In this document: piece by piece, positions 1 to 35,013 of the stretch
How the letters are laid out: each line of letters begins with the position of its first letter
Numbering within the stretch: position 1 is the stretch's first letter
IMG/VR virus record: IMGVR_UViG_2939177367_000002
Source: a virus
Taxonomy: Duplodnaviria; Heunggongvirae; Uroviricota; Caudoviricetes
Reading direction: 5' to 3' (one strand)
DNA length: 37,633 bases
Notes under the pieces: generated by a model
The model's database searches: none
What the model was told of the DNA's origin: nothing
Seen by the model: the letters and a program-made list of their open reading frames with translations, nothing else
Position numbers and translations under genes: made by a program

Positions 1-1053
1 TTATGGGGTAATGCCAACCGCTGCCGCCACTTTGTCGCCACTTGGCAGCGTTGCCAGAGGATTGAAACGGAGCGCCGTTTCTAGATGATCCGGTGCCAGA
101 TGTGCGTAACGCATAGTCATTTTTATATCGTGGTGTCCGAGAATTTTTTGTAAGGCCAGAATGTTTCCACCCGACATCATGAAGTGCGCCGCAAACGTAT
201 GGCGCAGAACGTGTGTGAGTTGACCGCGAGGGAGCACGATAGACGTTTTTTCCATCACGGATAAAAATTGAAAATAGCAGTCTGTGAAGAAATTGAACCC
301 ATCAAGCGCCATGATCTCTTCGTAAAGCTCTTTACTGATAGGGATGCTTCTGTTTTTCTTCCCCTTCGTTCTGACAAAGGTAATTCGGTATTTGGTCACC
401 TGTGAGCGGGTAAGATTTACGGCTTCACGCCAGCGTGCGCCTGTGCTTAAGCATATCTTAACTACCAGTGCCAGAATTGGGTCCTGACGTTTGCAATCAG
501 CCAGCAATTCAACAATCTGCTCATGGGTAAGCCATGCCATCTCTTTTTCTGCGATGGTGAATTTTCGCATGTTCTCCAGTGGGTTCGGATACGACCATTC
601 GCCCAGACGGGATAGTTCGCTAAAAACACTACTTAGATAGCTTTGCTCCAGGTTAATGGTGACCGGGCTTGCTCCTTTCTTCCATTTCTCGCTGAAGTAG
701 ATCTCGCCTGTCAGGCGTTTATCTCGATAGTGGGCAAACATTTTAGAGGTGAGATCGGTTGCAAGAGGATTGCCCAGAGCGTCAACCATCAACAGCAATT
801 TGTCATAGACATGCTGCCCAGCTGTCAGAGATTTACCATGTAGTTTGAACCATAGCTCAACCACGTCTTTCAGTGTTCGACGATCCACTGATTCACCCAG
901 CCAGGGCTTTGCTTCGGTTTCTTCCATCGTGTGGCGCTCAAAAGCCAGTGCTTCGCCTTTGGTAGCGAATTGTTTACGCACACGACGCCCACTTCGTCCG
1001 GCGGGGTAACATTCGCAAAGCCATTTCCCTGTGGTTAGTTTTCGTACTGCCAT
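1..1053 (-). CDS. int: Tyrosine integrase (P2/186-like), 350 aa; stop codon at window positions 1-3
   Basis: ATG at 1053 (reverse complement). C-terminal catalytic signature readable in translation: R in LSTGARWREA, H-x-x-R in HVLRHTFAAH, Tyr in MTMRYAHL. Sits at the prophage end next to the att repeat. Confidence 0.9.
   Translation of the reverse strand: MAVRKLTTGKWLCECYPAGRSGRRVRKQFATKGEALAFERHTMEETEAKPWLGESVDRRTLKDVVELWFKLHGKSLTAGQHVYDKLLLMVDALGNPLATDLTSKMFAHYRDKRLTGEIYFSEKWKKGASPVTINLEQSYLSSVFSELSRLGEWSYPNPLENMRKFTIAEKEMAWLTHEQIVELLADCKRQDPILALVVKICLSTGARWREAVNLTRSQVTKYRITFVRTKGKKNRSIPISKELYEEIMALDGFNFFTDCYFQFLSVMEKTSIVLPRGQLTHVLRHTFAAHFMMSGGNILALQKILGHHDIKMTMRYAHLAPDHLETALRFNPLATLPSGDKVAAAVGITP
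21..40. repeat. Putative attL core (CTGCCGCCACTTTGTCGCCA), left copy of a 20-bp direct repeat flanking the prophage
   Basis: 19/20 identity with 34781..34800 (CTGCCGCCAATTTGTCGCCA); the copies sit at the int and ogr ends. Lies inside the last codons of int. Confidence 0.6.
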
Positions 1054-1077
1054 AAAAAGCCCTCATATCAGAGGGCT
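1054..1077 (-). terminator. Hairpin (AGCCCTC-N7-GAGGGCT) followed by a T-run on the minus strand, immediately upstream of the int start codon
   Basis: Plus strand reads aaaagccctcatatcagagggct; on the minus strand the stem is followed by TTTTT and then the int ATG. The GAGGG of the 3' arm is also the only plausible int ribosome-binding site. Confidence 0.4.
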
Positions 1078-1085
1078 AAATTTAA

Positions 1086-1101
1086 CTGTATATGTAACCA
1101 G
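1086..1101. promoter_or_regulatory. LexA-box-like palindrome CTGTATATGTAACCAG (CTG-N10-CAG) inside a promoter-like spacer upstream of int
   Basis: Invariant CTG/CAG ends with an AT-rich centre. On the minus strand it lies between TTGATT and TTAAAT hexamers spaced 17 nt apart. Confidence 0.3.
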
Positions 1102-1135
1102 TAATCAATGTGTGATTACTATGAAAGATACATTG

Positions 1136-2812
1136 CTAAGCAACATGTAGTTCATCGTTGGCGGAAGTGGCTGCTTTGCGCTCCTGCTCAATAGCTAGAG
1201 ACTCTCTATATTCTTTCGCCTCTGCAAACATTGTCCAGTGGGCGTTGATGTTCATGTCTTCAATAACTGATTTGATTTCTTTTAAATTTACGTTAAAAAA
1301 CTCTTTTCGTGAGTTAATTTTATTGACCTGCTTTTCGTTGAAAACTTTATGCAGATGGTTTTCTAATGATGGTGCATCATCACTATAAATCATCGCATGA
1401 ACATCGAACGAAAAAGGAACACTAGCATCTCCGAGTTCACGAACACGATCAAGTGGTTCAAGGCGGCGTGTCATTCCAATTTTATATACATCTTCGCCAA
1501 ATGAACCAATATTACTAATGATATAGACGTGGCCTGATCTGGTTTGTTGAGCCATAGAAATAGCTCGTTGATTTTTAGCTTCAGCTTCTTCATATTTTAA
1601 CTGTAGTTCAGCTATTTTTTGCTCTAAAGCTAAGCGTTGTTCTTCATTTGCAAGCATAAGTTCTTTCGTTGCTTTATTTATAGCTTGCTGAATAGCTTTT
1701 TCTTCTTTTTCAGCTTCTTTTATCGCTTTTTCATATTCTCTACGAGCTCTTTCCTCTTCACGAAGCTGTTCTTTAATCCTTCTTTGCTCTTCTTTTTCTT
1801 CGAGCATAATTTCATTAACTGCTACACCCCATTTTAGCTCGTTGAGTCTTGCCTGAAGATAGATGTCACTTATTTTTGCGGACCTAAAGGCAGAGCCATT
1901 GTAATTTACTAGTTGAAATGCATCTTTTATTTCTTGGGAAAGTTTTCCAAAATTGTTGTGTTTGACTTTTGATAAAATACTGTCAACTCTTCCATTGAAG
2001 GCATCCAAAACAAAGTTTATGGCAGTATTACGCCTGTTTTGCTCAACATAATCACACGAAGCAGCTTTATTAGTTTTTATTAATGATTTGGTTAACTCTC
2101 TGGCTTTTTGTAATTCCTTGCCTGCATCTGTAAATTCATAATTTTCTGCCAGCTCATCAAGTACACTACGGTTAGGGATGATCCATTCATCACCATAACC
2201 TTCAATTTTATTTTTCATTGATTTTGCAACTGCTTCATATTTTTCTGCAAACTCTTTAGCTTCATATGCTGAACCAGCAATCTCCTTTGCTCTTTCTTCT
2301 GCATCAGAAATAATTTTTACTGCATTGTCATTAGCATTTGAGATTAGCTCATTTGCTTTATTATTAGCATTATCAAGACGTTCTTTGGCTTTCAGGCGTG
2401 CATCGCGAGCGTCTTTGGTGATTGCTATAGCTTCGCTATTAGCGTTGCTTATTGTCATCTGAGCTTGATAATTTGCTTCGTTTACTGTTTTAGCCGCCTT
2501 AATTTGGGCTTCATCTATTTTTTGCTTGGCTATTGAGTCCGCATTTTTTATCTTATTCTCTGCATCCATTACTGCGCTGTGCAATTCTTCGTATTGCCAC
2601 AATGGTGCTGCTCGCCCTTCAAGCTCTGATAATTCTCGTACGGTCTGTGCTAGTTTTTCTTGATTTTCAATCAGTTGGTTAGAAAGGGCTATGTTGTTAG
2701 CTGTCAGGTTATCTATAGCCGCTTTGTGTTTTTTACTTTGTTTAAATAATATTACAGCTAGAACAGGGGCGAGAAATGCTAATAAGAGTATAACGATGGC
2801 AAATGAATTCAT
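1136..2812 (-). CDS. Cargo protein, 558 aa: N-terminal transmembrane helix, long coiled coil, C-terminal T5orf172/GIY-YIG-like domain (DUF4041-like central region)
   Basis: ATG at 2812 with AAGGAT ribosome-binding site only 20 bp after the repressor stop. N-terminus MNSFAIVILLLAFLAPVLAVILF is hydrophobic. C-terminus contains GHVYIISN...YKIGMTRR...FDVHAMIYS resembling the T5orf172 fold. Region is visibly AT-rich compared with flanking phage genes. Confidence 0.75.
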   Translation of the reverse strand: MNSFAIVILLLAFLAPVLAVILFKQSKKHKAAIDNLTANNIALSNQLIENQEKLAQTVRELSELEGRAAPLWQYEELHSAVMDAENKIKNADSIAKQKIDEAQIKAAKTVNEANYQAQMTISNANSEAIAITKDARDARLKAKERLDNANNKANELISNANDNAVKIISDAEERAKEIAGSAYEAKEFAEKYEAVAKSMKNKIEGYGDEWIIPNRSVLDELAENYEFTDAGKELQKARELTKSLIKTNKAASCDYVEQNRRNTAINFVLDAFNGRVDSILSKVKHNNFGKLSQEIKDAFQLVNYNGSAFRSAKISDIYLQARLNELKWGVAVNEIMLEEKEEQRRIKEQLREEERARREYEKAIKEAEKEEKAIQQAINKATKELMLANEEQRLALEQKIAELQLKYEEAEAKNQRAISMAQQTRSGHVYIISNIGSFGEDVYKIGMTRRLEPLDRVRELGDASVPFSFDVHAMIYSDDAPSLENHLHKVFNEKQVNKINSRKEFFNVNLKEIKSVIEDMNINAHWTMFAEAKEYRESLAIEQERKAATSANDELHVA

Positions 2813-2832
2813 TTTAAAATCCTTTTACTATA

Positions 2833-3429
2833 TTAATTCGAGACTATTGTACTTCTTATACAAGCAACCACTTCAATATCAGAAAATGCACATTCAAAGC
2901 TATTCTCTGCTGTTGTAATTTTAATCATTCCTTTAGGAAGCCTTGTGATTTTTCGAATGGAATAGGTTCCGTCGATATTGATTAACCAGTTTCCATCAAG
3001 TACTTCAGAAAATTTTTGATCACAAATGTATGTGACGAGTCCATCCTGAACAACAATTGGTGATGAAAGGTTTGCAGGAAGAAATGATGAATCGAAGACA
3101 TATGAACCGTCTTCAATCATTTTGCCTGCGGCAAGGCGAAACTTAACAAGCTCTTCTGTAGCTGCTGTCAGCGAGCTTTGCTTAAGGCCTTGTCCGGTAG
3201 TTAACCATTTGAGGGAGGTTCCTGTTTCAAGAGCACATTGGATTATCCAGTCAGCAGGAAATGTATCCCGCAAATACCTGTTCGCTAGTGTGCTTTTTGA
3301 TACTTCCAAGTGATCAGCTAAAGCCTGTCGTGTCGTAAAGCCATAGGCTTCGACTAATCGCTCAATCGCAGCCTTACCACCTTTATTGGGATTTATTTTG
3401 ATCTCACTTGGGTACTTTGATGTTGACAT
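2833..3429 (-). CDS. cI: CI-type immunity repressor (phage 186 CI-like), 198 aa
   Basis: ATG at 3429. N-terminal helix-turn-helix-like segment (TTRQALADHLEVSKSTLANRYL). Position between int and a divergent Apl/CII-like operon matches the 186 switch region. Confidence 0.75.
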   Translation of the reverse strand: MSTSKYPSEIKINPNKGGKAAIERLVEAYGFTTRQALADHLEVSKSTLANRYLRDTFPADWIIQCALETGTSLKWLTTGQGLKQSSLTAATEELVKFRLAAGKMIEDGSYVFDSSFLPANLSSPIVVQDGLVTYICDQKFSEVLDGNWLINIDGTYSIRKITRLPKGMIKITTAENSFECAFSDIEVVACIRSTIVSN

Positions 3430-3458
3430 ATCTCTTTTGCGATCCTAGTATCAGTTTT

Positions 3459-3474: not shown

Positions 3475-3524
3475 TTGTCACGATTACTACAGGCTCACCA
3501 CAAGCCAATAGGAGATGTTGCATC

Positions 3525-3746
3525 ATGACCCCTAACATTTCAATAACTCTGAATACGCCACACGTCACAATCGAGCGTTATAGCGAACTTACTGGTCTTT
3601 CAATCGACACAATCAACGATATGTTGGCGGATGGTCGCATTCCTCGGCATCGTCTTCGTAAAGACAAGAAAAGAGAAAAGGTAATGATCAACCTTGCTGC
3701 TCTTACCGTTGATGCACTTACTGATTGCAATGTTGTATTCAACTAG
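3525..3746 (+). CDS. apl: Apl/Cox-like excisionase and transcriptional regulator, 73 aa
   Basis: ATG at 3525 preceded by GGAG; translation MTPNISITL...[25 protein letters not shown] has a helix-turn-helix character. First gene of the rightward early operon, as in 186. Confidence 0.6.
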
Positions 3747-5352: not shown

Positions 5353-5579
5353 TGGCTGATGCAATGGATCTCGTACAGCAGCGCGTTGAAGAAGAACGCC
5401 AACGCCATATCCGTGCTGCCCGTGCCAAAACGCCGGGCGTGTCCCGTGTGCTTTGCGTTGAGTGTGAAGCGCCAATTCCGCCAGCACGCCGCCGTGCCAT
5501 TCCGGGTGTGCAGCTTTGCATTACCTGTCAGGAAATCGCAGAGCTGAAAGGCAAACATTACAACGGAGGTGCTGTATGA
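5352..5579 (+). CDS. TraR/DksA-family C4 zinc-finger protein, 75 aa
   Basis: Two Cys pairs (CVECEAP...CITCQ) with the spacing typical of phage/plasmid TraR-like zinc fingers; the position corresponds to P2 orf82. Confidence 0.75.
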   Translation: MADAMDLVQQRVEEERQRHIRAARAKTPGVSRVLCVECEAPIPPARRRAIPGVQLCITCQEIAELKGKHYNGGAV

Positions 5580-6433
5580 GCACCATCCTGAAATGGGCAG
5601 GAAATAAAACCGCCATAATGTCCGAACTGAAAAAGCATCTTCCTGCTGGCCCGCGACTGGTTGAACCTTTCGCGGGTTCCTGTGCAGTGATGATGGAGAC
5701 GGATTACCCCAGCTATCTTGTTGCGGATATTAATCCTGATTTAATCAACCTCTATAAAAAGGTTGCTGCTGATTGTGAGGCGTTTATATCTCGTGCCAGA
5801 GCTTTATTTGAGGAAGCAAACAGGGAGGTGGCTTATTACAACATAAGGCAGGAGTTTAATTACTCCACTGAAATTACTGATTTCATGAAAGCGGTATATT
5901 TCCTGTATCTCAATCGTCACGGTTACCGTGGTTTATGTCGCTATAACAAGAGCGGGCATTTCAACATTCCCTACGGTAATTATAAAAATCCGTATTTCCC
6001 TGAAAAAGAAATTCGCGCATTTGCAGAGAAAGCCCAGCGGGCAACGTTTATCTGCGCCAGCTTTGATGAAACGCTGGCGATGTTGAAGGTGGGGGATGTG
6101 GTGTATTGCGATCCGCCTTATGACGGTACGTTTTCCGGCTATCACACTGATGGTTTCACTGAAGATGATCAGTATCACCTGGCATCCATTCTTGAACATC
6201 GGTCATCAGAAGGACATCCGGTCATTGTTTCTAACAGTGACACATCCCTGATCCGTTCGTTGTATCGCAATTTCACCCACCACTACATCAAAGCAAAACG
6301 CAGCATCGGTGTGGCAGCTGGCGAGGGTAAATCAGCAACAGAAATCATTGCTGTTTCCGGGCCGCGCTGCTGGGTGGGATTTGATTATTCGCGTGGCGTG
6401 GACAGTTCTGCCGTGTACGGAGTACGTGCATGA
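5576..6433 (+). CDS. DNA N6-adenine methyltransferase (Dam-like, D12 class), 285 aa
   Basis: ATG at 5576 with GGAGG ribosome-binding site. SAM-binding-like segment [11 protein letters not shown] and catalytic DPPY motif (VYCDPPYDG) visible in translation. No nuclease partner adjacent. Confidence 0.85.
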
Positions 6434-8844
6434 GTCATGCCGATATGAACAACTGCTGCGGCTTTAACGAGTCTGCCGCAGCATTCTCATGGAACAGCCC
6501 GAAAAAGGCCATTAACCCTTATCTGGACCCGGCGGAAGTTGCGCCGGTTTCTGCGCTTTCAAACCTGATCACTCTGTACGCTGCCGATAACGAGCAGGAA
6601 CAACTGCGCCGCGAGGCACTGAGTGATCAGGTCTGGGAGCGTTATTTCTTTAATGAATCCCGTGATCCTGTCCAGCGCGAAATGGAGCAGGATAAGCTAA
6701 TTAGCCGGGCAAAGCTGGCGCATGAGCAGCAGCGTTTTAATCCGGACATGGTCATTCTGGCGGATGTCAACGCCCAGCCTTCCCATATCAGCAAGCCGCT
6801 GATGCAACGTATTGAATACTTCAGCAGCCTGGGCAGGCCAAAGGCTTATTCCCGCTATTTACGTGAGACGATTAAGCCATGTCTGGAACGACTGGAGCAT
6901 GTACGCGACAGTCAGCTATCTGCATCTTTTCGCTTTATGGCAAGCCATGAAGGGCTGGACGGCCTGCTGATCTTGCCTGAAATGAGTCAGGATCAGGTGA
7001 AACGCCTGTCCACCCTGGTAGCTGCGCATATGAGTATGTGCCTTGATGCAGCTTGTGGTGATTTGTATGCCACCGATGACGTTAAGCCAGAAGAAATCCG
7101 CAAGACATGGGAAAGGGTGGCAGCAGAAACCCTGCGACTGGATGTCATCCCACCTGCGTTTGAGCAACTCCGCCGGAAAAGAAACCGCCGTAAACCCGTG
7201 CCCTATGAACTCATTCCGGGTTCGCTGGCGCGTATGTTGTGCGCCGACTGGTGGTATCGGAAATTATGGAAGATGCGTTGCGAATGGCGGGAAGAGCAGT
7301 TGCGCGCTGTCTGCCTGGTCAGCAAAAAAGCATCTCCCTATGTCAGCTATGAAGCTGTGATGCATAAACGTGAGCAGCGCCGTAAGTCGCTGGAGTTTTT
7401 TCGTTCTCATGAACTGGTGAACGAAGATGGCGACACGCTGGATATGGAAGACGTGGTAAACGCCAGCAGCAGCAACCCTGCGCATCGCCGCAATGAGATG
7501 ATGGCCTGTGTTAAAGGTCTGGAGCTTATCGCGGAAATGCGCGGTGACTGCGCCGTTTTCTACACCATCACCTGTCCGTCACGTTTCCATTCCACGCTAA
7601 ATAACGGCAGGCCCAACCCGACTTGGACAAATGCGACGGTAAGACAAAGCAGTGATTATCTGGTCGGCATGTTTGCTGCATTTCGTAAGGCGATGTACAA
7701 AGCCGGATTGCGCTGGTATGGCGTGCGGGTGGCTGAGCCGCATCATGACGGTACAGTTCACTGGCACCTGTTGTGTTTTATGCGCAAAAAAGATCGCCGC
7801 GCCATTACTGCTTTGTTGCGTAAGTTTGCCATTCGTGAAGACCGTGAGGAGCTGGGTAATAACACAGGACCACGCTTTAAGTCTGAGCTGATAAACCCGC
7901 GCAAAGGTACGCCAACAAGCTACATCGCGAAATACATCAGTAAGAACATTGACGGGCGTGGTCTGGCTGGCGAGATCAGCAAGGAAACGGGTAAATCCCT
8001 GCGTGATAACGCTGAATACGTTAATGCCTGGGCGTCTCTTCATCGTGTTCAGCAATTCCGCTTCTTTGGCATTCCGGGGCGTCAGGCTTACCGTGAACTG
8101 CGATTGCTGGCTGGTCAGGCGGCAAGGCAACAGGGGGACAAAAAAGCAGGTGCGGCGGTACTGGATAACCCACGCCTTGATGCCATCCTGGCTGCTGCTG
8201 ATGCTGGTTGTTTTGCCACCTACATCATGAAGCAGGGCGGCGTGCTGGTTCCCCGTAAATATCACCTCATCAGAACCGCTTATGAAATCAACGAAGAGCC
8301 GACCGCCTATGGCGATCACGGCATTCGTATTTATGGCATCTGGTCACCCATTGCAGAGGGCAAGATCTGCACTCATGCAGTGAAGTGGAAAATGGTTCGT
8401 AAAGCCGTTGACGTTCAGGAGGCGGCAGCCGACCAGGGCGCTTGCGCCCCTTGGACTCGTGGCAATAACTGTCCCCTTGCTGAAAATTTGTACCAACAAG
8501 GGAAAGACAAATCAGCTGATGGGGATACCAGAACGGATATTACCCGCATGGATGACAAGGAGTTGCACGATTACCTGCACAGTATGAACAAAAAAGAGCG
8601 CCGGGAACTGGCTGCAAGGTTACGCCTGGTGAAACCGAAACGGCGTAAAGACTACAAACAGCGAATTACAGACCATCAGCGACAGCAGCTCGTCTATGAA
8701 CTGAAGTCCAGAGGATTTGATGGCAGCGAGAAAGAGGTCGATTTACTCCTTCGCGGCGGCAGTATTCCGTCAGGAGCAGGCCTGCGTATCTTCTATCGGA
8801 ACCAGCGTTTGCAGGAAGATGATAAGTGGCGAAACCTGTATTAA
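6430..8844 (+). CDS. A: Rolling-circle replication initiator endonuclease (P2 gpA-like), 804 aa
   Basis: ATG at 6430 overlapping the upstream stop. Size, position and a paired-tyrosine segment ([11 protein letters not shown]) match the P2 A family. Confidence 0.9.
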
Positions 8845-8996: not shown

Positions 8997-9185
8997 ATGC
9001 AGGACTATTTTTTGGAGTCTTTGAAGCTCCAGCGCATTGATTTTTTTCTTAAGCTTGTAGCGGCTAGTGAGTGTAGTGATGAAGAGAAGGGGCTGGCTTT
9101 GCAGTGGGTTTCTGAACTAACAGATGAACTCATGGCAAAAATCAGAACCCACGAATACAACCGCTCAATGGATGTCATCAGTTGA
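8997..9185 (+). CDS. Small SOS-controlled protein, 62 aa; possibly the N-terminal module of a Tum-like antirepressor
   Basis: ATG at 8997 with AGGAGG ribosome-binding site directly downstream of the LexA box; followed 11 nt later by the DinI-like gene. Confidence 0.5.
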   Translation: MQDYFLESLKLQRIDFFLKLVAASECSDEEKGLALQWVSELTDELMAKIRTHEYNRSMDVIS

Positions 9186-9196
9186 GGTGACTTTTT

Positions 9197-9430
9197 ATGC
9201 GCATTGAAATAATGATCGATAAAGAGCAGAAGATTAGCCAGTCTACCCTGGACGCCCTTGAATCCGAGCTTTACCGCAATCTGCGTCCTCTGTATCCCAA
9301 AATGGTAATTCGTATCCGCAAAGGTAGCTCTAACGGTGTGGAACTGACCGGATTGCAACTGGACGAAGAAAGAAAACAAGTGATGAAAATTATGCAGAAG
9401 GTGTGGGAAGACGACAGCTGGCTGCATTAA
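9197..9430 (+). CDS. DinI-like protein, 77 aa
   Basis: ATG at 9197 with GAGGTGA ribosome-binding site. Translation MRIEIMIDK...IRIRKGSSNGVELTGL...VWEDDSWLH resembles the DinI family as I recall it. Confidence 0.7.
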   Translation: MRIEIMIDKEQKISQSTLDALESELYRNLRPLYPKMVIRIRKGSSNGVELTGLQLDEERKQVMKIMQKVWEDDSWLH

Positions 9431-9700
9431 GAAACGTTGCTGGCGTCTGAACTTGCTTCTGGCGTCAGCAAGGTTGAACAACGAGCTATGCGAGGCGTTA
9501 GTGTCAATTTGTTACCTTAACCACTATATATGCCAGGAAATTAACAGTTCTTAAGAAACAGCTTGCATGATCGAGCGCATTGAACTTAAGTTTAAGTAAC
9601 GCAATCAACAGATGATATTGTTGTCTAAATTTTAAAGATAATCTGTTGAGGTTGTAGGCGTCGGAGTGTAGACTTCCGCGCCATGTGAAAAGGGGGAGTT

Positions 9701-9916
9701 ATGTCAAGCATCGCCGCATTTAGCCTGGGTAACCCAGTTGAACGTCTGGCAAGGGTTCTTAAAGAGAACCAGGACAAACTCAATCTTAGTAAAGATGGTT
9801 TTGTGTCCGTAGACTTGTCTAACAAAAGAGCAATGGATGCCATCAAGGCACAGATGGATAAGCTTGAAGGCATCAAAACGAGCACTGTAAAAGAGAAAAC
9901 TAATAGAACCAGATAA
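9701..9916 (+). CDS. Hypothetical small soluble protein, 71 aa; first gene of a two-gene cargo operon
   Basis: ATG at 9701 with GGGGGAG upstream; its stop TAA overlaps the next ATG (TAATG at 9914..9918), implying translational coupling. Confidence 0.5.
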   Translation: MSSIAAFSLGNPVERLARVLKENQDKLNLSKDGFVSVDLSNKRAMDAIKAQMDKLEGIKTSTVKEKTNRTR

Positions 9917-10758
9917 TGGCAACATTACTTTTAGCAGTGATTTTGGTTAGTGGTTTTATTTATGTAAACCTATCACTTTCAACAAGATACCGATATAAGC
10001 GTTCCAACGGCTGGGACGCTTATTTTTTTGTGGCTGCCTGGGGTATCGTTTTTTTTCTCCTTGGCGGTTTTTTCACCTTTATTTTGAACGTCAGCGGAGG
10101 GTTTCGTTGGCTGGCTAATGCCTTGAATCTAACACCTGACAGTTTTAATGGCATGTTGTCTTCATCGAAAGACAAACTTCAAAGAATAAATGAAATCAAA
10201 CAGATAGCATGGGTTATGATTTCAATTGTCCTCGCTGCGATTTCAGGTTTTGGAAATAAGTTACGCACATCACGTGGAGATCGTCGCTGGGATGCCTTAG
10301 CTAAAGCTGTGGGTAATAACGCTTTCGAATCATTACTCATGGAAGCGTCCGCAAGACAGTTTCCGATCATAGCAACTCTGTCGTCTCGCAAAATCTATGT
10401 TGGTCTTGTTACTTGTCCGGCGTTAGAAAACGGGCTTTCAGAGCACCTTGAACTTCTCCCGATGTTAAGCGGATATCGGGATAAAGATGATCTAACGATT
10501 AGTATCACGACTAACTATCACCAACATTATCTTGATAGTGGTGTGATAAGTGGAATGTCTCGGCTTAATATCGAAGATTTCCGTGTGCTCATACCAAAAG
10601 ATGAGGTTGAAACAATTTCGTTTTTTGATACTGAGACATATAACAAATTTAAAGAAAATGAAGCCAGGGATAGAAAGAACTGTCGAAAGATTGATAGTAA
10701 AAGTGCATCTTCGCGCAGCAAGCGTGCAGCAGATGCTGAGTCAAATGATCGTGCATGA
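9916..10758 (+). CDS. Hypothetical membrane protein, 280 aa, three predicted transmembrane helices plus a ~170-aa charged C-terminal domain
   Basis: Hydrophobic segments LLLAVILVSGFIYVNL, YFFVAAWGIVFFLLGGFFTFIL and IAWVMISIVLAAISGFG; no family recognised. Confidence 0.6.
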   Translation: MATLLLAVILVSGFIYVNLSLSTRYRYKRSNGWDAYFFVAAWGIVFFLLGGFFTFILNVSGGFRWLANALNLTPDSFNGMLSSSKDKLQRINEIKQIAWVMISIVLAAISGFGNKLRTSRGDRRWDALAKAVGNNAFESLLMEASARQFPIIATLSSRKIYVGLVTCPALENGLSEHLELLPMLSGYRDKDDLTISITTNYHQHYLDSGVISGMSRLNIEDFRVLIPKDEVETISFFDTETYNKFKENEARDRKNCRKIDSKSASSRSKRAADAESNDRA

Positions 10759-10805
10759 CTATGCTGCATGAGATCGCATGATCGTTTGAGGATCGTTTTT
10801 GCTAG

Positions 10806-10830
10806 GGCCCGCCAGAACTGGCGGGCTTTC
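10806..10830 (+). terminator. Weak hairpin GGCCCGCC-AGAACT-GGCGGGC followed by TTTC
   Basis: Read directly; lies after the 280-aa gene and before the AT-rich promoter region of the 557-aa gene. Confidence 0.3.
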
Positions 10831-10995
10831 GCGTAGATCATGCACCTGCATGAAAACTACTACATAAAGCGGGCAGGCGTGGCGGGGATACGAGCGCGCG
10901 CAACAGTGTAACAATCTGGATCTAATGTGATATAGTTACTGTAAATATTATTAACTATTCTTATATGCATTATTAAATATTTTAATGGAGCGTTT

Positions 10996-12669
10996 ATGGA
11001 AAAATATCAAGATGAGGAATATGTAGATGATTTAACTGAGCGTGTTTTTCTCATTAAGCAACAACTGGAAGCGGGAAAACTAAAAATAGCTCATCATCTT
11101 GTAGAAGGTTTTATTGAAAGTTTTAAAAGAATAAGGCTGCGACAGGATGGTAAAGTTGACCCTTCTACTGTTGATGGCAGAATAAGGGCTATGGGAGCAG
11201 CGGTTAATCACTTTTTAGAAAGAGAAGATATAAAAAACAAATACTCTATTCAGGACTTGCAAAGTTCTTACTTTAATATTCTTTTTAGTAATTTTGGCGA
11301 GTTGTTTTATCTGATGAAAAAAACTAATGCAACGCCACATAAAGCATCAAGTTTTTTTTCTCAACAAGAAGAATATGTTAAGCAAATAGAAGATATTTTT
11401 CCTGAGTTATATAATCAGGTAATAGAGTTTTGGCAGGTAACATCCGATATTGGTGTAATACATTTGCAGGATGGTTCTCAGTTTAAAGCTAATTTTTCTG
11501 GTGACTTATTTCCTGCATTTGATGAGAATGCTGTCTCTATTGCAGGGTTGTATGTTGATACTATTTCACTTCCATGTCCTATATTAAGAGTCGGTCGTCT
11601 CTATGAAAAGTCAGATAAGGCTGAGTTTACAAGGATACTTCTGAAGCATGTCCTAACATGTATGACATATAAAGAAGTAGCGCTTGAAGATATAGAGCCA
11701 GCAATAGTATTAATTTTGCCGGATAGAAGAGATTTTGAAACTGAGAGCAAAAAAAATTTGATGAGTTTTTGTGAGCCTTATGCTCTGACTCATGCGCAAT
11801 ATCTCTATGATCGACGGTTCGAAAGCTACGATGAATTTCGAGATTTTAGTTATTCGATGAATGATATTGATGCTGTTCTTAAAAATATTAAGAGAGCAGA
11901 TAGACTTATTTTTGATACAGCATGGGGGCTAAATCCAAAAACTCAATTAGAAAAACTACTATCTGATAAAAAAAGAATATCACGTAATGTTGTTGGTGAT
12001 CATGCTGGAATGGAGGTTTTCCTTTCCTGCATTGGAAGAATGCCGCAAGCCTATTCAGCAAAATGTAATGCACAAGAACTTGGTAGTACTCCATATATAA
12101 ATGCAGACACATCTTGGCTCTATTATACTTGGCTTATTGAGTACGAATCTCTTAATTTTGATGTCAATGATATTGAACTAAAAAATTTGCATATGGTTCA
12201 TGCGTTATCTGCTGGTATGCAAGATGGTTTTTCATGGTTAGGAAATGTACCGGTCAATAAAATAATTGAGTTGAGACGTAACAAATTGATGGAGGATGTA
12301 AGATCCATCTTATCAAATGGTGTTGACTCTTTAATCAATTCTTCGGCAGAGAGCTTTTCGAGGACAACGCAAAAAGTAATTGATAATGTAGACCGGGCTT
12401 TTATTGAACATCAAAGGATTCTTGCAAAAGCCCAAAAAGAGAAATTGAGAATTTACGGACTAGATGTCCTACCATGTATCGCAAATGGTGCTATAGCAAT
12501 TGCTGGAGCGCTGACTGGCAATACTACTTTAACGGCGTTAAGTGCAGGCCTTGGAGTAATAGGTATTCCGAGTATTAGTGATATCAAATCTAAATTTAAG
12601 CAGAGGCAAGAGAAGCTTGATGCCTATCAACGTTCTGTTACAGGTATACTCTTTAGCCATAAATCTTAA
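10996..12669 (+). CDS. Hypothetical protein, 557 aa, very AT-rich, with a Gly/Ala-rich hydrophobic segment near the C-terminus; no recognisable family
   Basis: ATG at 10996 with GGAG upstream and an AT-rich promoter-like leader. Long uninterrupted frame with protein-like composition; C-terminal GAIAIAGALTG...ALSAGLGVIGIP; terminator hairpin downstream. Confidence 0.7.
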   Translation: MEKYQDEEYVDDLTERVFLIKQQLEAGKLKIAHHLVEGFIESFKRIRLRQDGKVDPSTVDGRIRAMGAAVNHFLEREDIKNKYSIQDLQSSYFNILFSNFGELFYLMKKTNATPHKASSFFSQQEEYVKQIEDIFPELYNQVIEFWQVTSDIGVIHLQDGSQFKANFSGDLFPAFDENAVSIAGLYVDTISLPCPILRVGRLYEKSDKAEFTRILLKHVLTCMTYKEVALEDIEPAIVLILPDRRDFETESKKNLMSFCEPYALTHAQYLYDRRFESYDEFRDFSYSMNDIDAVLKNIKRADRLIFDTAWGLNPKTQLEKLLSDKKRISRNVVGDHAGMEVFLSCIGRMPQAYSAKCNAQELGSTPYINADTSWLYYTWLIEYESLNFDVNDIELKNLHMVHALSAGMQDGFSWLGNVPVNKIIELRRNKLMEDVRSILSNGVDSLINSSAESFSRTTQKVIDNVDRAFIEHQRILAKAQKEKLRIYGLDVLPCIANGAIAIAGALTGNTTLTALSAGLGVIGIPSISDIKSKFKQRQEKLDAYQRSVTGILFSHKS

Positions 12670-12674
12670 TGTAG

Positions 12675-12704
12675 AGGGCCGAGGTATTCGGCCCTTAGTT
12701 TTAT
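12675..12704. terminator. Hairpin AGGGCCG-N7-CGGCCCT with flanking T-rich tract, between the 557-aa gene and portal gene Q
   Basis: Read directly; could terminate the plus-strand cargo gene and/or the convergent Q transcript. Confidence 0.4.
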
Positions 12705-13729
12705 ATGAAACTGTATGGCATGAATTTTATTATGTCATCTTTGAGCCATTTATTGAGTTCTTCTATTCTGTTTTGTAGCGGTATCAATTCATTACGCATA
12801 AAAACCTTACTAGCCTTCTCCACATCCCCAAATCCCCCAACATTATTCGGCATTATCCCCATCATTTGCGGCGGCACTCGGTGTGCTGCCATCATGTCAT
12901 CCCGGCTCACGTTCTTGATATTCAAAAATTCATCCTTTGCCGCGACTTCTGACAGAGGAATAATCTGAAGCCCGTCTTTTTTGCCGTTAGGCGAGTACAT
13001 AAACAGGTTGCGAAAGTTGCCTGGACCTTTGGCGCTTTTCATCGCGTTACGGAGATTGTTTACATCTTCCTGGTTCTGCGCGGCGTCGGTCATGTACATG
13101 ATGAAGCCTGCATGGCTGCCGTTGATGTAATACTTACGGCGGAACAGCGTGGCGGACTCGTTGAGCAGGGCTGACGGAATGGCAGAAAGATAACCGGGCA
13201 GGCCGTAGATCTCCTGGTTGATATCTGGTTCCATCAGATGAAAAATGCTGCCTTTCGTGAACTGATACGGTTGCGTGGTCATACCGTATTGCACAAACCA
13301 GTAGGTATCCAGGTCTAACCCGCGTCGGGTATATTTTGCCAGGGCAGGCTCAAGAGCGATAATTTCACCGAACCGGTTCGTGCGTTTCTCCAGATAGGCG
13401 TTACCAAATACCAGATAGTCCTGCACAAAACGTGAAAAAGCCTGCTGGCTGAGCAGCGGGTGAGGGATGTAGGTGCTGGTCAGAATGTTGCACTTTACTG
13501 CAATCGGGGAACTATGATGAACGGCAGCGCGGAAGGTGCGCGCCAGTCCGTCAAAGCTGACGGGCGGCTCATACCAGCGGTCCATCTGTACGCATTCCAC
13601 ATAATCCAGCAGTTCTCGGCGGTCCAGAACAGGAACGGGATCGCCGAAGCTGAATGCTTCGGCTGTAGTTTGACTTTTAAGCTGGATCTGTTTCGTCGCC
13701 GCAGCGCGGTTCTTCTTACTCTTTCCCAT
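12701..13729 (-). CDS. Q: Portal protein (P2 gpQ-like), about 342 aa
   Basis: ATG at 13727..13729 (reverse) overlapping the gpP stop (TGATG). Size and position next to the terminase match P2. The last ~25 codons are encoded by AT-rich DNA. Confidence 0.85.
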   Translation of the reverse strand: MGKSKKNRAAATKQIQLKSQTTAEAFSFGDPVPVLDRRELLDYVECVQMDRWYEPPVSFDGLARTFRAAVHHSSPIAVKCNILTSTYIPHPLLSQQAFSRFVQDYLVFGNAYLEKRTNRFGEIIALEPALAKYTRRGLDLDTYWFVQYGMTTQPYQFTKGSIFHLMEPDINQEIYGLPGYLSAIPSALLNESATLFRRKYYINGSHAGFIMYMTDAAQNQEDVNNLRNAMKSAKGPGNFRNLFMYSPNGKKDGLQIIPLSEVAAKDEFLNIKNVSRDDMMAAHRVPPQMMGIMPNNVGGFGDVEKASKVFMRNELIPLQNRIEELNKWLKDDIIKFMPYSFI

Positions 13730-15495
13730 CAAAAAAACTCCACAATATTGCTGGTATTGGCGGATTCGCCCTGCAGCGGTTCGTTAAACAGTGCGTGCAT
13801 CGTTGCCCAGGCCAGATCGGCGTGGCTGGCTTCTTCGCTGCGGCTGGCTTCATAGGTCGGGCGGTTGCCACTGGCGGTGGTGGCGCGACGGATTGCCATA
13901 AAGGACTGCGCTATGTCGGTGTGTCCGGCGTCAAACTCCAGACGGCGGTGGCTGATAATGTCGTAGGCCTTGAGTACCAGGGCGTTTTTAACGTTGGGGT
14001 TGTAGACAAACTCCCGGACGGCAGGAAAAAACGCTTTCACGTTCTCGTAAACCCCGTGACCAACGCCGGTTGAGTCGATACCGATATAGGTCACGTTGTA
14101 CTGTTCGGTCAGTTTTTTGATGGCGTCAGCCTGGGCGCGGAAGTCCATTCCGCGCCACTGGTGACGCTCAAGAATGCGGAACTTACCGCCCGGCACGGCT
14201 GGCGGCGCCACCACCACGCATCCGGCGCTGTCGCCGTTCTGCGTACCTTTCGCCGGGTCATATCCGATCCACACTTCGCGCCAGCCAAACGGGCGCAGGG
14301 CCAGTGCATGAAAGTCGGTCCAGACTTCCCAACTGTCCACCATGCACGCCTGCAGCTCGCTGAGTGGGAACACAGACGCGAGATCGTCCACGAACTCACA
14401 CATCAGCAGGTTCTGGTATTCGTCCGGGCTGTACTCCATGCGCAACTGGTCGAGGTCGAACAGGTTACAGCCGCCGCGCACCGCATCTTCCACAGTGACT
14501 ATCTGGCGGTACTGCCCGTCTGCGCACAGCAGGCCGGGGGCCAGATTGCTGTGGGACAGGTCGATGTCCACCTTATCGGCTTTGTTGCGCCCTCGGTTGA
14601 ACAGCGCACCGGACCAGAACGGATAAGCACTGTGTGTCAGGCTGGATGGCGTGGAAAAATAGGTTTGTCGCCATTTTTTGTGAATAGCCATACCGGAAGC
14701 CACTTTGCGCAGCTCCTGGAATTTCGGTATCCAGAAATATTCATCCAGATACAGGTTGCCGTGGTAACTCTGGGCCGTGCGGGCATTGGTGCCGAGGAAG
14801 TACAGCGTGGCCCCGTTAGGAAGCACCATCGGATCGCCTTTCAGCTCCACCTCCACTTCTTTGGCGAAGTCGATGATGTACTGCTTAAAGACGTGGGCCT
14901 GAGCCTTGCTGGCGGAAAGGAAAATCTGGTTACGCCCGGTTAGCAGGGCGTCAATCAGGGCTTCACGGGCAAAATAGAAGGTCGCGCCGATCTGGCGTGA
15001 CTTCAGCAGGTTGCGGATGCGGTTGGTTTTTCCGGCTTCCCACCAGTGGCGCTGGTAGTTGAACATGGAGGAATGGAAGATTTCTTCCAGCTTCTCAATC
15101 TGTTCATCGGTGAAAACGTTCTTTTCCGGCTGACGGCGCGGGCCTTTGTTGCGGTTGGCGACGTTAGGGTTTAAGTCGGCTTCGTTGCCGCCATTGTTAA
15201 ACTTGCCGATCCGCGCATGGCGCTCCGACTGGCGCGCCAGCAGGTCAATCTCTTTGAAATCTTTCCCTTCTTTGTGCTCCTTCATAATGAGCTGGCAGTA
15301 GCGTGCGGCGGTGGTGAGCTGCATCTGATCCAGCGGCCCATAGTCACCCCACTTGTCGCGTTTTTTCCAGCTGTGAACGGTTGCAACTTTCTCGCCCAGC
15401 ATTTCAGCAATGCGGGCTACGCGGTATCCCTGAAAGTACAGCAGCATGGCCTGCCGACGGGGATCGAGATCTGCGGGTGTCAGTGTGGTGTTCAT
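13729..15495 (-). CDS. P: Terminase large (ATPase) subunit (P2 gpP-like), 588 aa
   Basis: ATG at 15495 (reverse); size and divergent arrangement with the O-N-M-L operon as in P2. Confidence 0.9.
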   Translation of the reverse strand: MNTTLTPADLDPRRQAMLLYFQGYRVARIAEMLGEKVATVHSWKKRDKWGDYGPLDQMQLTTAARYCQLIMKEHKEGKDFKEIDLLARQSERHARIGKFNNGGNEADLNPNVANRNKGPRRQPEKNVFTDEQIEKLEEIFHSSMFNYQRHWWEAGKTNRIRNLLKSRQIGATFYFAREALIDALLTGRNQIFLSASKAQAHVFKQYIIDFAKEVEVELKGDPMVLPNGATLYFLGTNARTAQSYHGNLYLDEYFWIPKFQELRKVASGMAIHKKWRQTYFSTPSSLTHSAYPFWSGALFNRGRNKADKVDIDLSHSNLAPGLLCADGQYRQIVTVEDAVRGGCNLFDLDQLRMEYSPDEYQNLLMCEFVDDLASVFPLSELQACMVDSWEVWTDFHALALRPFGWREVWIGYDPAKGTQNGDSAGCVVVAPPAVPGGKFRILERHQWRGMDFRAQADAIKKLTEQYNVTYIGIDSTGVGHGVYENVKAFFPAVREFVYNPNVKNALVLKAYDIISHRRLEFDAGHTDIAQSFMAIRRATTASGNRPTYEASRSEEASHADLAWATMHALFNEPLQGESANTSNIVEFF

Positions 15496-21006: not shown

Positions 21007-21445
21007 ACTGCAGAAGGTGGACGACTGGCTGAGTGCCTTGCTGGCGAATCTGGAACCAGCCACGAGAAGCCGCATGATGCGCCAGCTGGCGCAGGAACTG
21101 CGCCGGACACAGCAGCAGAATATCAGGATGCAGCGCAATCCAGATGGCAGCAGTTATGAACCGCGCAGGGTAACAGCACGCAGCAAGAAGGGGCGCATCA
21201 AACGTCAGATGTTTGCAAAGCTGCGCACCACAAAATACCTGAAAACTGCCGCCAGCGCCGACTCTGCCAGCGTACAGTTTGAAGGCAAGGTGCAGCGTAT
21301 TGCCCGTGTTCACCATTACGGCCTGCGTGATCGCGTCAGTCGCAAAGGACCGGAGGTCCGTTACGCAGAGCGCCGCCTGCTGGGTGTAAATGATGATGTT
21401 GAGGCAATGACCCGCGACATGATTCTGCAATGGCTGGCGGGGTGA
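20999..21445 (+). CDS. S: Tail completion protein (P2 gpS-like), 148 aa
   Basis: GTG at 20999 overlapping the R stop; synteny. Confidence 0.75.
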   Translation: MAELQKVDDWLSALLANLEPATRSRMMRQLAQELRRTQQQNIRMQRNPDGSSYEPRRVTARSKKGRIKRQMFAKLRTTKYLKTAASADSASVQFEGKVQRIARVHHYGLRDRVSRKGPEVRYAERRLLGVNDDVEAMTRDMILQWLAG

Positions 21446-21449
21446 TCTT

Positions 21450-21467
21450 TGTATCAGCACTGATACA
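21450..21467. promoter_or_regulatory. Perfect TGT-N12-ACA dyad (TGTATCAGCACTGATACA) upstream of gpV; candidate Ogr-dependent late promoter element
   Basis: Read directly; a perfect 18-bp palindrome 47 bp upstream of the V start codon. Confidence 0.5.
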
Positions 21468-21513
21468 AGTTGCAGCACTGCCGCCTTTCTTCCCCTGATG
21501 GCAACCTTTCCCT

Positions 21514-22092
21514 ATGAACGCACAATTAACCGAAATCATGCGCCTTATCACCAACCTGATCCGCACAGGGGTAGTCACCGAAGTGGACAGGGAAAACTGG
21601 CTTTGCCGGGTGAAAACGGGCGAGCTTGAAACCAACTGGATCAGCTGGCTGACGCTGCGTGCCGGGAATGCCCGCACATGGTGGCGACCATCGGAAGGTG
21701 AGCAGGTGGTGCTGCTGAGTCTGGGCGGCAATCTGGAAACCGCCTTTGCGTTACCCGCCATCTATTCGAATCAGTTCGCGCCACCGTCGACGTCGGCGGA
21801 CGCCTGCGTGACAGAACATCCTGACGGTGGCTGGTTTGAATACGAACCCGCCACCGGGCGCTGGTATGTCAGGGGCATCAAATCAATGGTCATTGAGGCC
21901 GCTGACAACATCACCATGAAAACCAGTGAGTTTGTACTGGAGGCTGACCGCACGCGCATTAACAGCGAAGTGGTGATCAATGGTGGCGTTACCCAGGGCG
22001 GCGGAGCGATGAGTTCTAACGGGATCGTGGTTGATGCGCATCAGCATACTGGCGTCCTGAAAGGCGGCGATACAACCGGAGGCCCGGTATGA
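21514..22092 (+). CDS. V: Baseplate spike/assembly protein (P2 gpV-like), 192 aa
   Basis: ATG at 21514; synteny V-W-J-I-H. Confidence 0.85.
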   Translation: MNAQLTEIMRLITNLIRTGVVTEVDRENWLCRVKTGELETNWISWLTLRAGNARTWWRPSEGEQVVLLSLGGNLETAFALPAIYSNQFAPPSTSADACVTEHPDGGWFEYEPATGRWYVRGIKSMVIEAADNITMKTSEFVLEADRTRINSEVVINGGVTQGGGAMSSNGIVVDAHQHTGVLKGGDTTGGPV

Positions 22093-22448
22093 CGCTTTAT
22101 AGCGGGATGAACAATACCAGCGGCAAAGTCATTACTGATATTGATCATCTGCGCCAGTCGGTGCGGGACATTCTGCTGACACCGCAGGGTAGCCGTATTG
22201 CCCGCCGGGAATATGGTTCCCTGCTGTCGGCACTGATAGATCAGCCACAAAATCCGGCATTACGCCTGCAGGTCATGTCGGCAGTGTATGTGGCGCTGAG
22301 TCGCTGGGAGCCACGGTTGACGCTGGATTCCATCACCATCAACAGCAATTTTGACGGTTCAATGGTGGTGGAGCTGACCGGGCGGCGGAATAACGGTGTG
22401 CCTGTGTCCCTTTCCGTATCAACAGGAGCAGAGAATGGCAGTGATTGA
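22089..22448 (+). CDS. W: Baseplate wedge protein (P2 gpW-like), 119 aa
   Basis: ATG overlapping the V stop (ATGA); size matches P2 W. Confidence 0.85.
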   Translation: MTLYSGMNNTSGKVITDIDHLRQSVRDILLTPQGSRIARREYGSLLSALIDQPQNPALRLQVMSAVYVALSRWEPRLTLDSITINSNFDGSMVVELTGRRNNGVPVSLSVSTGAENGSD

Positions 22449-34800: not shown

Positions 34801-34858
34801 TCGTTAAAAAACACTGCTTCTAACATCATGATTTTAAAAGGCATAAATTTTAGGCAAC

Positions 34859-34901
34859 AAAAAACCCATCAACCTTGAACCGAAATGGCGGGGTTGATGG
34901 G
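34859..34901 (-). terminator. Rho-independent terminator of ybjL (10-bp stem CCCATCAACC/GGTTGATGGG followed by a T-run on the minus strand)
   Basis: Read directly; a perfect 10-bp stem, with AAAAAA on the plus strand at 34859..34864 giving UUUUUU on the minus-strand transcript. Confidence 0.55.
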
Positions 34902-35013
34902 CTCCACAAAATGGGGACATCAAAGAAAAGCAGTGGCACTAATTAAGACTGATGCCCTGCGGAAAAGTTCTGCGGTTGTGCAAAAAAATTTCATTTTCAG
35001 GGCAACTTCAGTT

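Follow-up and report, generated by a model that had tools for sequence, protein, structure and literature searches.

The gene between the repressor and integrase genes of a P2/186-like prophage is, as judged from its sequence, a member of the SNIPE (PD-λ-1) family, which is already characterized and already named, so the finding is largely an ordinary one. The gene lies in a window of 37,633 nucleotides (IMG/VR record IMGVR_UViG_2939177367_000002), and it probably encodes a prophage-carried, single-gene antiphage system that would be expressed in the lysogen and would cut phage DNA at injection. A defense or exclusion factor had been proposed at this position in the original prediction, and this is now supported by a match to the PADLOC PD-Lambda-1 profile (E=2.4e-120) and by a tested member of the family. 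Since the family has a name and a mechanism that has been worked out, the gene is less remarkable than was held at first.

The locus and its expression signals

The locus consists of three genes:

1..1053, minus strand: tyrosine integrase gene int, 350 aa (Pfam Int_N 3e-32, Phage_integrase 7e-22)
1136..2812, minus strand: SNIPE/PD-λ-1 family gene, 558 aa, an open reading frame (ORF) with an ATG start and a TAG stop
2833..3429, minus strand: 186-type CI repressor gene, 198 aa (Pfam Phage_CI_repr 8e-32, Phage_CI_C 3.5e-27)

The cI gene is upstream and int downstream of the 558-aa gene, which is on the same strand as cI, begins 20 bp past the repressor stop, and ends 82 bp before int; the coordinates match those of the original prediction. 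That prediction also described the repressor and integrase genes as adjacent in 186-like phages, and in phage 186 they do abut, with cI (22433-23011) and int (21423-22433) overlapping by 1 nt in one lysogenic operon (annotated 186 sequence). The AT-richness it reported is equally evident, with a GC content of 0.37 in the gene, 0.40 in cI, 0.49 in int, and 0.52 in the remaining prophage. The 558-aa gene is the sole ORF in the cI-int interval, which makes this a single-gene system, as in SNIPE/PD-λ-1. The relatives in Klebsiella, Citrobacter, and E. coli likewise have one ORF between cI and int.

The candidate expression signals around these genes are as follows:

1054..1077, minus strand: terminator-like hairpin AGCCCTC-tgatat-GAGGGCT, then a T-run ending at the int ATG (terminator scan)
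1079..1108, minus strand: promoter-like element TTGATT-18-TAAATT directly 5' of the hairpin, conserved across architectures
2813..2832, minus strand: 20-nt spacer from cI to the gene; its Shine-Dalgarno sequence AAAGGA lies 7 nt upstream of the ATG
3423..3451, plus strand: rightward pR-like promoter TTGACA-17-TAGTAT that overlaps the cI start (promoter scan, 10/12 matches)
3515..3543, minus strand: candidate pL (lysogenic promoter) TTGAAA-17-CAACAT, weak, equivalent to the 186 pL by position only

Co-transcription of the gene with cI is plausible from this layout, that is, from the spacing and the consensus scans. No promoter or terminator was predicted in the 20-nt spacer by the promoter and terminator scans, and both the spacer length and the motif AAAAGGA are kept in the Klebsiella, Citrobacter, and E. 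coli relatives. The pR-like promoter matches the annotated pR of phage 186 in position and direction. The pL of 186 spans the apl start (annotated 186 sequence); the candidate pL here was not detected by the consensus promoter scan. Transcription from this leftward promoter in the lysogen probably runs through both cI and the gene and probably stops at the hairpin that immediately precedes int. The 3' arm of the hairpin includes the int Shine-Dalgarno sequence GAGG, and the folding of the 96-nt stretch that contains it (1045-1140) gave z=-3.55. The hairpin is present in 18/18 locus architectures in two sequence versions, one of them a compensatory AGTCCTC/GAGGACT variant. The promoter-like element beside it scores below the promoter-scan threshold, and its version in relatives is TTGACA-16-TAAAAT. 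An Rfam search of the locus found no known RNA.

The rexAB genes of phage λ, which are co-transcribed with cI, are an example of an exclusion or defense function encoded downstream of a repressor gene. Both rexAB and the 558-aa gene occupy this position, and so the latter would be made in the lysogen as well. Rex comprises two proteins, includes an ion channel, and works abortively, whereas the product of the 558-aa gene is one membrane-anchored nuclease whose predicted target is the incoming DNA itself.

Protein architecture and family membership

From the N-terminus to the C-terminus, the protein is made up of the following parts:

2744..2803, minus strand: predicted single-pass transmembrane helix, aa 4-23 (Kyte-Doolittle 19-residue mean 3.16)
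2204..2722, minus strand: long helical region with 11-residue repeats, aa ~31-203 (periodicity and predicted helix)
1847..2014, minus strand: DUF4041 domain (PF13250), aa 267-322 (Pfam 3.1e-12, 46.6 bits vs a cut-off of 27)
1538..1822, minus strand: charged linker helix, aa 331-425, rich in E/K/A/R and without Pro or Gly
1253..1534, minus strand: T5orf172/MUG113 (GIY-YIG-type) nuclease domain, aa 427-520 (Pfam 3.2e-17 and 3.7e-20)
1361..1363, minus strand: codon of E484, which aligns with E414, the catalytic residue of the tested SNIPE

This architecture agrees with the N-terminal transmembrane helix and the T5orf172/GIY-YIG-like C-terminus described in the original prediction. The helix at aa 4-23 is the only hydrophobic segment, no other 19-residue window exceeding 0.7, and it is followed directly by the basic stretch KQSKKHK; the predicted topology is N-terminus out and C-terminus in. 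The term repetitive coiled coil, used earlier for the next region, is a fair description, though the repeat is a hendecad and not a heptad: the sequence of aa 80-200 repeats every 11 residues (z=7.1 at offset 11, compared with shuffles), and its hydrophobic period is 3.65. A profile search had been suggested as a check on DUF4041 and T5orf172, and the matches to both, as well as to MUG113, exceed the Pfam curated cut-offs. The current Pfam name of PF13250 is SNIPE. Y430, Y443, R449, and E484 are invariant across 20 homologues.

The AlphaFold2 model of the protein, built on a 20-sequence alignment, is poor (mean pLDDT 51.8, pTM 0.22) because all of the homologues in the alignment are at least 82% identical. 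Only the secondary structure was used, as matches to a low-confidence model are meaningless. The model places helices at aa 2-64, 72-203, and 317-425; the last of these corresponds to the linker (pLDDT 65-79 over aa 351-410), which also aligns with the linker of the reference SNIPE. A sequence search of the PDB with the 558-aa protein found no solved relative.

The PADLOC match (PDLC03976) is a full-length one, with aa 106-550 on positions 36-481 of the 491-position model, and a second PD-Lambda-1 profile, PDLC03977, matches at E=7.9e-117. The protein also matches phrog_1847 (E=6.6e-133). There is a weaker PADLOC match of the C-terminal domain to the candidate system PDC-S57 (4.5e-20). T5orf172 proteins are also found in other candidate systems, of which PDC-S57 is an example.

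The reference SNIPE used for comparison is the ECOR26 protein RCP76574.1 (500 aa), taken from the supplementary data of Vassallo 2022 and the primers of the SNIPE paper; a copy matching it was recovered at L003:9018-10520. Like the 558-aa gene, SNIPE ECOR26 is a single gene carried by a prophage (PMC9519451, PMC13190303), and the two proteins share the order of transmembrane helix, helical region, DUF4041, charged linker helix, and GIY-YIG/T5orf172 nuclease. The BLASTP alignment to the reference covers aa 265-555, that is, DUF4041, linker, and nuclease, at 50% identity (E=5e-77), rising to ~80% within the nuclease domain, and hhalign gave a probability of 100. Both proteins have the catalytic Glu: E414 of the reference sits in APSL-E-KKLH (primer oDS93), and the aligned E484 in APSLENHLH. 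The E414A mutation abolishes defense by SNIPE (PMC13190303).

The two proteins differ in their N-terminal parts and at the specificity-changing positions of the tested SNIPE, where reference W257 corresponds to K327 and reference E223 to S292. The N-terminal part has 264 aa here and 195 aa in the reference; it is thus ~70 aa longer, contains the 11-residue repeat, and cannot be aligned, as neither BLASTP nor hhalign detected similarity of the first 264 residues to the reference. A search of these 264 aa against Pfam at E≤10 returned only sub-threshold matches of the coiled-coil type (DivIVA, ATP-synt_B, TMF_DNA_bd). An exhaustive search with the same part found 204 representatives at E≤1e-10. 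DUF4041 was present in 7 of the 10 that were checked, and T5orf172 in 4 of those 7 as well; the shorter ones look truncated. With DUF4041 in 7/10 of these relatives, there is no clear evidence of a module borrowed from a host membrane protein. The genomic setting differs too: in E. coli CFSAN061770, the reference-type SNIPE belongs to a lambdoid prophage, where it is flanked by ren and the nin region and is oriented against its neighbors, whereas the 558-aa gene is in a P2/186-like prophage, downstream of cI and on the same strand.

Proposed mode of action and alternatives

The tested SNIPE blocks phage λ and many siphoviruses; it is constitutively located at the membrane, with an experimentally mapped N-out/C-in topology like that predicted here, and its association partners are ManYZ and the tape measure protein (PMC13190303). 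The λ DNA is cleaved during injection, an induced prophage is unaffected, and the defense is direct, with cells surviving at high multiplicity of infection (PMC13190303).

By analogy, the 558-aa protein would be anchored in the inner membrane by its one N-terminal helix; the other ~535 residues would be cytoplasmic, with DUF4041 and the GIY-YIG nuclease held at the membrane on long helices. Upon injection of a phage genome, DUF4041 may engage both the incoming DNA, which the nuclease would then cut, and the machinery of injection, represented by the tape measure protein for the tested SNIPE. Confinement of the nuclease to the membrane, and its inactivity away from the injection site, would protect chromosomal and prophage DNA. 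The cell and its resident prophage would survive, and the system would therefore act by direct defense and not by abortive infection. The N-terminal 264 residues are the part proposed as a specificity adapter. Since they are not homologous to those of the tested SNIPE, neither its ManYZ association nor its target range can be transferred to this protein.

Removal of the transmembrane helix makes SNIPE highly toxic, and the chromosome is cut (PMC13190303); a nuclease of this type is thus able to attack host DNA. A transmembrane helix is present in 66% of SNIPE homologues (PMC13190303). The toxicity would suit a different account, in which the membrane-tethered nuclease is an abortive-infection or toxin-like effector that is activated or released by infection and degrades host and phage DNA alike, so that the lysogen dies. 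The divergent N-terminal region leaves room for such regulation, and the match of the C-terminal domain to PDC-S57 can be counted on the same side. However, the account is improbable given the survival of cells carrying the tested homologue, the retention of the membrane anchor here, and the 50% identity of the DUF4041-linker-nuclease part to the tested SNIPE, which is far higher in the nuclease domain.

Homing endonucleases contain relatives of the T5orf172/GIY-YIG domains, and one could consider the gene a selfish, homing-endonuclease-like element, which would have placed itself in the cI-int junction and would contribute nothing to defense. Its AT-richness relative to the phage and its presence in only some relatives would fit such an origin. 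It is nonetheless very unlikely, as homing endonucleases have neither a transmembrane anchor nor anything like the ~400 helical and DUF4041 residues, and the slot is shared by many unrelated cargo genes, several of them known defense genes. The cI-gene-int block has also diverged in step over ~15% protein distance, which fits long co-inheritance, and one member of the family is an experimentally shown defense gene (PMC13190303). A homing endonuclease is expected to be a soluble nuclease that has a domain for binding DNA and homes to its cognate, unoccupied site, not one with an anchor and DUF4041, and it was rejected as a candidate. The remaining candidate, a structural or chromosome-segregation (SMC-like) protein, comes from the GenBank product name "chromosome segregation ATPase" in phages vB_EcoM-813R9 and KP12 and from weak matches of the coiled-coil type to SMC_prok_A (0.0026), DivIVA_Wag31 (1e-4), and V-type ATPase subunit E. 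These matches score 15-22 bits against curated cut-offs of 260-729 and fall on the helical regions, whereas DUF4041, T5orf172, and PD-Lambda-1 match strongly. No ATPase or Walker-motif domain was found in the domain searches. At 15.5 bits, SMC_prok_A falls far short of its cut-off (729) and matches no more than a coiled-coil stretch; an SMC-like ATPase is effectively refuted and extremely unlikely.

A prophage-carried SNIPE-type nuclease can also be compared with Zorya and Kiwa, membrane-associated defense systems that are discussed beside SNIPE (PMC13190303). Zorya and Kiwa act at the cell envelope during genome entry, as the 558-aa protein is predicted to do, but they are multi-gene systems of unrelated proteins, and PADLOC found no sequence similarity of the 558-aa protein to either.

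A variable cargo slot between cI and int

The gene is cargo and not core, as had been suspected, and it sits in a variable slot with conserved flanks that also holds known defense genes. It is carried by 12 of the 80 viral contigs with a ≥99% identical integrase and by 164 of the 1096 complete E. coli genomes that have a matching int 5' end and upstream element; the same 164 are ~3% of 5426 complete E. coli genomes. The 80 loci have 18 different architectures in the cI-int interval, with an interval GC of 0.32-0.39. The other occupants include Old (9e-235), an AriA/OLD-like ATPase, PDC-S20 KAP NTPases, PDC-M18A, and PDC-M11A, and some loci have only a small ORF in the slot. Several occupants are without recognizable domains.

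The gene is common in prophages of Klebsiella, Citrobacter, and Salmonella, and E. coli 210221272 and AR_0085 have identical copies. It is no newly acquired, isolated insertion: the block of cI, 20 bp, gene, 82/83 bp, and int is kept in Klebsiella, Citrobacter, and E. coli prophages, the proteins of both cI and the 558-aa gene being ~82-87% identical. Across Escherichia, Klebsiella, Citrobacter, Salmonella, and Enterobacter, the 558-aa proteins share 82-85% identity.

Published passages on P2-like phages already describe a defense hotspot in the same interval. For example, a cI-integrase hotspot is reported in Vibrio K139-like relatives of P2 (Rousset et al. 2022, PMC9122126), and 8% of P2 defense systems are placed between integrase and primase (NAR 2026, PMC13586616). 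The two classical P2 hotspots are gpA-portal (old/tin) and a tail-gene locus (fun) (PMC9122126, PMC13586616). As described there, the P2-like hotspots resemble the cI-int slot in having conserved phage flanks and variable cargo of known and candidate defense genes; the cI-int slot differs from the classical ones in lying inside the lysogenic operon, where it directly follows cI and precedes a conserved terminator-like hairpin. No description of the cI-cargo-hairpin-int layout was found in the searched passages of the two papers (PMC9122126, PMC13586616).

A broader reading can be offered tentatively. These proteins may form a distinct and widespread enterobacterial subfamily of SNIPE, in which the unrelated N-terminal module (transmembrane helix and hendecad-repeat helices) directs the nuclease to an entry route or host partner other than ManYZ, giving a different target range that possibly includes non-siphoviruses. 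The position at the end of the cI operon, before a conserved terminator that would also sequester the int ribosome-binding site, may likewise be a dedicated, lysogen-only slot for exchangeable defense cargo. If the N-terminal module does alter recognition, the subfamily and the tested SNIPE would together be a natural experiment in retargeting a self/non-self system based on localization. The cI-cargo-terminator-int slot is in addition a compact place to seek further defense genes expressed in the lysogen.

Understanding of the SNIPE family would be left unchanged by one more member of a known family. The direct value is a correct annotation, that of a SNIPE-family defense nuclease, in place of the chromosome-segregation label in the GenBank phage entries. 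Identical copies in RefSeq carry the label "SNIPE associated domain-containing protein."

The gene, its neighbors and its product

A gene lying between the repressor gene cI and the integrase gene int was the original prediction for 1136-2812, and the ORF and domain searches confirm it. The whole window is a P2/186-like (Peduoviridae) prophage, with the following elements around the gene and at the far end.

1-1053, minus strand: tyrosine integrase (int), from domain search, downstream of the window gene
1054-1108, minus strand: promoter-like element and terminator-like hairpin with a T-run, in the last ~65 nt before int; equivalents occur in L015-L094, the loci of 80 IMG/VR contigs with an integrase ≥99% identical to the window's (the int-matched contigs)
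1136-2812, minus strand: window gene, 558 aa, ORF with start ATG and stop TAG
2833-3429, minus strand: CI repressor, 198 aa, with both 186/P2-type CI domains (Pfam), upstream of the window gene
3423-3451, plus strand: pR-like promoter TTGACA-17-TAGTAT, overlapping the cI start, as in 186
3515-3543, minus strand: weak candidate pL, TTGAAA-17-CAACAT, read by eye at the position equivalent to 186 pL
34856-37346: host DNA at the right end, with the RybB sRNA (105 bits), a ybjL-like Asp-Al_Ex permease and ybjM

The host genes place the insertion between rcdA and rybB/ybjL, with the right attachment site near rybB. The cI stop and the window-gene start are exactly 20 nt apart, with AAAGGA 7 nt ahead of the ATG, and 82 nt separate the gene from int. 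The GC content is 0.37 in the gene, 0.40 in cI, 0.49 in int and 0.52 in the remainder of the prophage. Over this region, the window shares 99.9% identity with Escherichia phage vB_EcoM-813R9 and 95.4% with Klebsiella phage KP12.

The sole hydrophobic segment of the protein is at residues 4-23 (Kyte-Doolittle 3.16) and is followed by KQSKKHK; together these predict an anchor that crosses the membrane once, leaving about three residues outside and the remainder in the cytoplasm. Residues ~31-203 are helical in a low-confidence predicted structure. Within residues 80-200 the sequence repeats strongly with an 11-residue period (z=7.1 vs shuffles) and the hydrophobic period is 3.65, near 11/3, which together indicate a hendecad-repeat helix rather than a classical heptad coiled coil. 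Three further segments follow.

aa 267-322: DUF4041 (Pfam, above the curated threshold)
aa 331-425: charged helix connecting the two domains
aa 427-520: T5orf172/MUG113, of the GIY-YIG-type nuclease family (Pfam, above the curated thresholds)

The GenBank name “chromosome segregation ATPase” (ON470620.1, OM835953.1) is unsupported by the domain searches, which found no ATPase domain; the SMC, DivIVA and V-ATPase matches are coiled-coil noise, with scores far under the cut-offs.

A member of the SNIPE family

The suggestion that the gene serves in defense is supported by PADLOC, which matches the protein to PD-Lambda-1 (E=2.4e-120). PD-λ-1 was identified when E. coli strains were screened functionally (PMC9519451) and was renamed SNIPE when it was characterized in Nature in 2026 (PMC13190303). 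SNIPE is an inner-membrane protein, constitutively anchored with its N-terminus out. It associates with ManYZ and the tape measure protein, and cleaves λ DNA during injection, while an induced resident prophage is unaffected. Without its transmembrane helix, the nuclease becomes toxic and cleaves the chromosome, and defense is abolished by E414A and likewise by deletion of DUF4041. The protection is direct and non-abortive; it covers siphoviruses but none of the tested myoviruses or podoviruses (all PMC13190303). In RefSeq, copies identical to the window gene already carry the name “SNIPE associated domain-containing protein,” and the current Pfam name of PF13250 is “SNIPE.” The window gene belongs to an already named, mechanistically characterized family and occupies an already noted hotspot, and standard tools (PADLOC, current Pfam, RefSeq) suffice to identify it.

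The reference for comparison was the E. coli ECOR26 protein RCP76574.1 (500 aa), a matching copy of which was found in E. coli CFSAN061770 via the primer sequences of the SNIPE paper (PMC13190303); this copy starts MTQTPLLLAI and ends PEFADAI, in agreement with the primers. By BLASTP, window residues 265-555 align to reference residues 196-487 at 50% identity (E=5e-77), with roughly 80% identity in the nuclease domain. The window E484 aligns to the reference E414, and Y430, Y443, R449 and E484 are invariant in 20 homologs. Residues 1-264 gave no alignment to the reference by BLASTP or profile comparison. Among ~500 SNIPE homologs, variability is greatest in the N-terminal region, which the authors propose to be a specificity adapter (PMC13190303), so the differing N-terminus falls within known family variation. 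Single substitutions at the reference W257 and E223 strengthened SNIPE binding to a tape measure protein (PMC13190303); the corresponding window residues differ, being K327 and S292. The carriers differ as well: the reference type belongs to a lambdoid prophage, where ren and the nin region flank it, whereas the window gene is in a P2/186-like prophage.

Cargo of the cI-int interval

The window gene is accessory. The apl-to-int interval was surveyed in the 80 int-matched contigs and takes 18 architectures, with the window gene carried by 12 contigs in addition to the window. One cI type can be found alongside differing cargo. Other occupants include Old (PADLOC 9e-235), a 662-aa AriA/OLD-like ATPase, KAP NTPases matching PDC-S20, PDC-M18A, PDC-M11A and proteins without a recognizable domain; all cargo is AT-rich (GC 0.32-0.39) and on the cI/int strand. 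Among 5426 complete E. coli genomes, 164 have the window gene, always within the full cI-gene-int block, while 1096 have in common the 5' end of int and the element upstream of it. A defense hotspot between cI and the integrase is already published, for Vibrio K139-like P2 relatives (Rousset et al. 2022, PMC9122126).

The block, made up of a 198-aa cI, a 20-nt spacer, the 558-aa gene, an 82/83-nt gap and int, is found unaltered in prophages of Klebsiella, Citrobacter and E. coli, at identities to the window of 81-87% for CI, 82-85% for the gene product and 90-93% for Int, so the association of the gene with this immunity type is old. Within the product, the transmembrane helix (60-70% identity) and helical region (79-81%) diverge fast, and DUF4041, the linker and the nuclease more slowly (86-93%). 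In NZ_CP116094.1 (E. coli DETEC-S560; H43), the gene is interrupted by an IS4-family ISVsa5 element.

The default occupant, present with cI alone in about 40 of the 80 contigs, is a 63-aa ORF (L016:5621-5812, plus strand) with a signal-peptide-like N-terminus (MLGKVFFVVLSCSLLL...) that matches NCBIfam PRK10040.1-2 “hypothetical protein” (7.7e-34). The PDC-M11A partners are 354 or 260 aa and 123 or 127 aa. Several cargo sets (among L065, L077, L046, L053, L089, L093, L082 and L088) drew no match in Pfam, PADLOC or NCBIfam; their ORFs, of 349 aa + 201 aa, 342 aa + 226 aa, 488 aa, and 324, 325 and 355 aa, are candidate unrecognized lysogen-expressed defense genes. Many architectures (L021, L065, L050, L053, L088 and others) have a CI-like protein of 307-318 aa, compared to the usual ~190-220 aa, and L021 has tandem CI-like genes of 191 aa, then 307 aa.

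Elsewhere in the window, the early operon has a Dam-like orphan N6-adenine methyltransferase (5516-6433, plus strand; MethyltransfD12 3.5e-77 by Pfam, oMTase 1e-111 by PADLOC), found in some relatives and absent from others. Three ORFs without a Pfam/NCBIfam match lie in the classical P2 hotspot (9005-12669), between the gpA-like replication gene (6430-8844) and the portal gene (12701-13732): 158 aa (minus), 280 aa (plus) and 557 aa (plus), the last with a weak PADLOC match to DitB (7e-10).

Probable expression with cI and the element ahead of int

From the layout, we infer that the gene product is made together with CI in the lysogen. The two genes share a strand 20 nt apart, the Shine-Dalgarno sequence of the window gene is conserved, the promoter/terminator scan predicted neither a promoter nor a terminator between them, and all the alternative cargo points the same way. 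The same scan missed the candidate pL at 3515-3543.

The premise that cI and int are adjacent in phage 186 is correct: they overlap by one base, in a single lysogenic operon under pL and pE, and because of this overlap 186 has no pre-int hairpin. In all 18 architectures, a promoter-like element (TTGACA-16-TAAAAT in most relatives, TTGATT-18-TAAATT in the window) stands directly after the cargo slot; a GC-rich hairpin comes next, then a T-run that stops precisely where the int ATG begins. The hairpin occurs in two versions with pairing kept, AAAATGCTCTCY/GGAGGGCATTTT and AGCCCTC/GAGGGCT, and as a compensatory variant, AGTCCTC/GAGGACT, at two loci (L070 and L080). The int Shine-Dalgarno sequence sits in the 3' arm. 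Judging by sequence, the hairpin would terminate the cI-cargo transcript and, on read-through RNA, would mask the int ribosome-binding site, while int's own start point might lie within the 5' arm. The element and hairpin may insulate int from the lysogenic transcript.

Just past the cargo stop, there is an ATGTATG-N12-15-CATACAT-type inverted repeat, imperfect in the window (~1110-1135, minus strand) and also present in L016, L044, L070 and L089. Its arms co-vary in some loci (ATGTTTGA...TTAAACAT in L070), and it might form a second RNA hairpin or mark the recombination boundary of the cargo slot.
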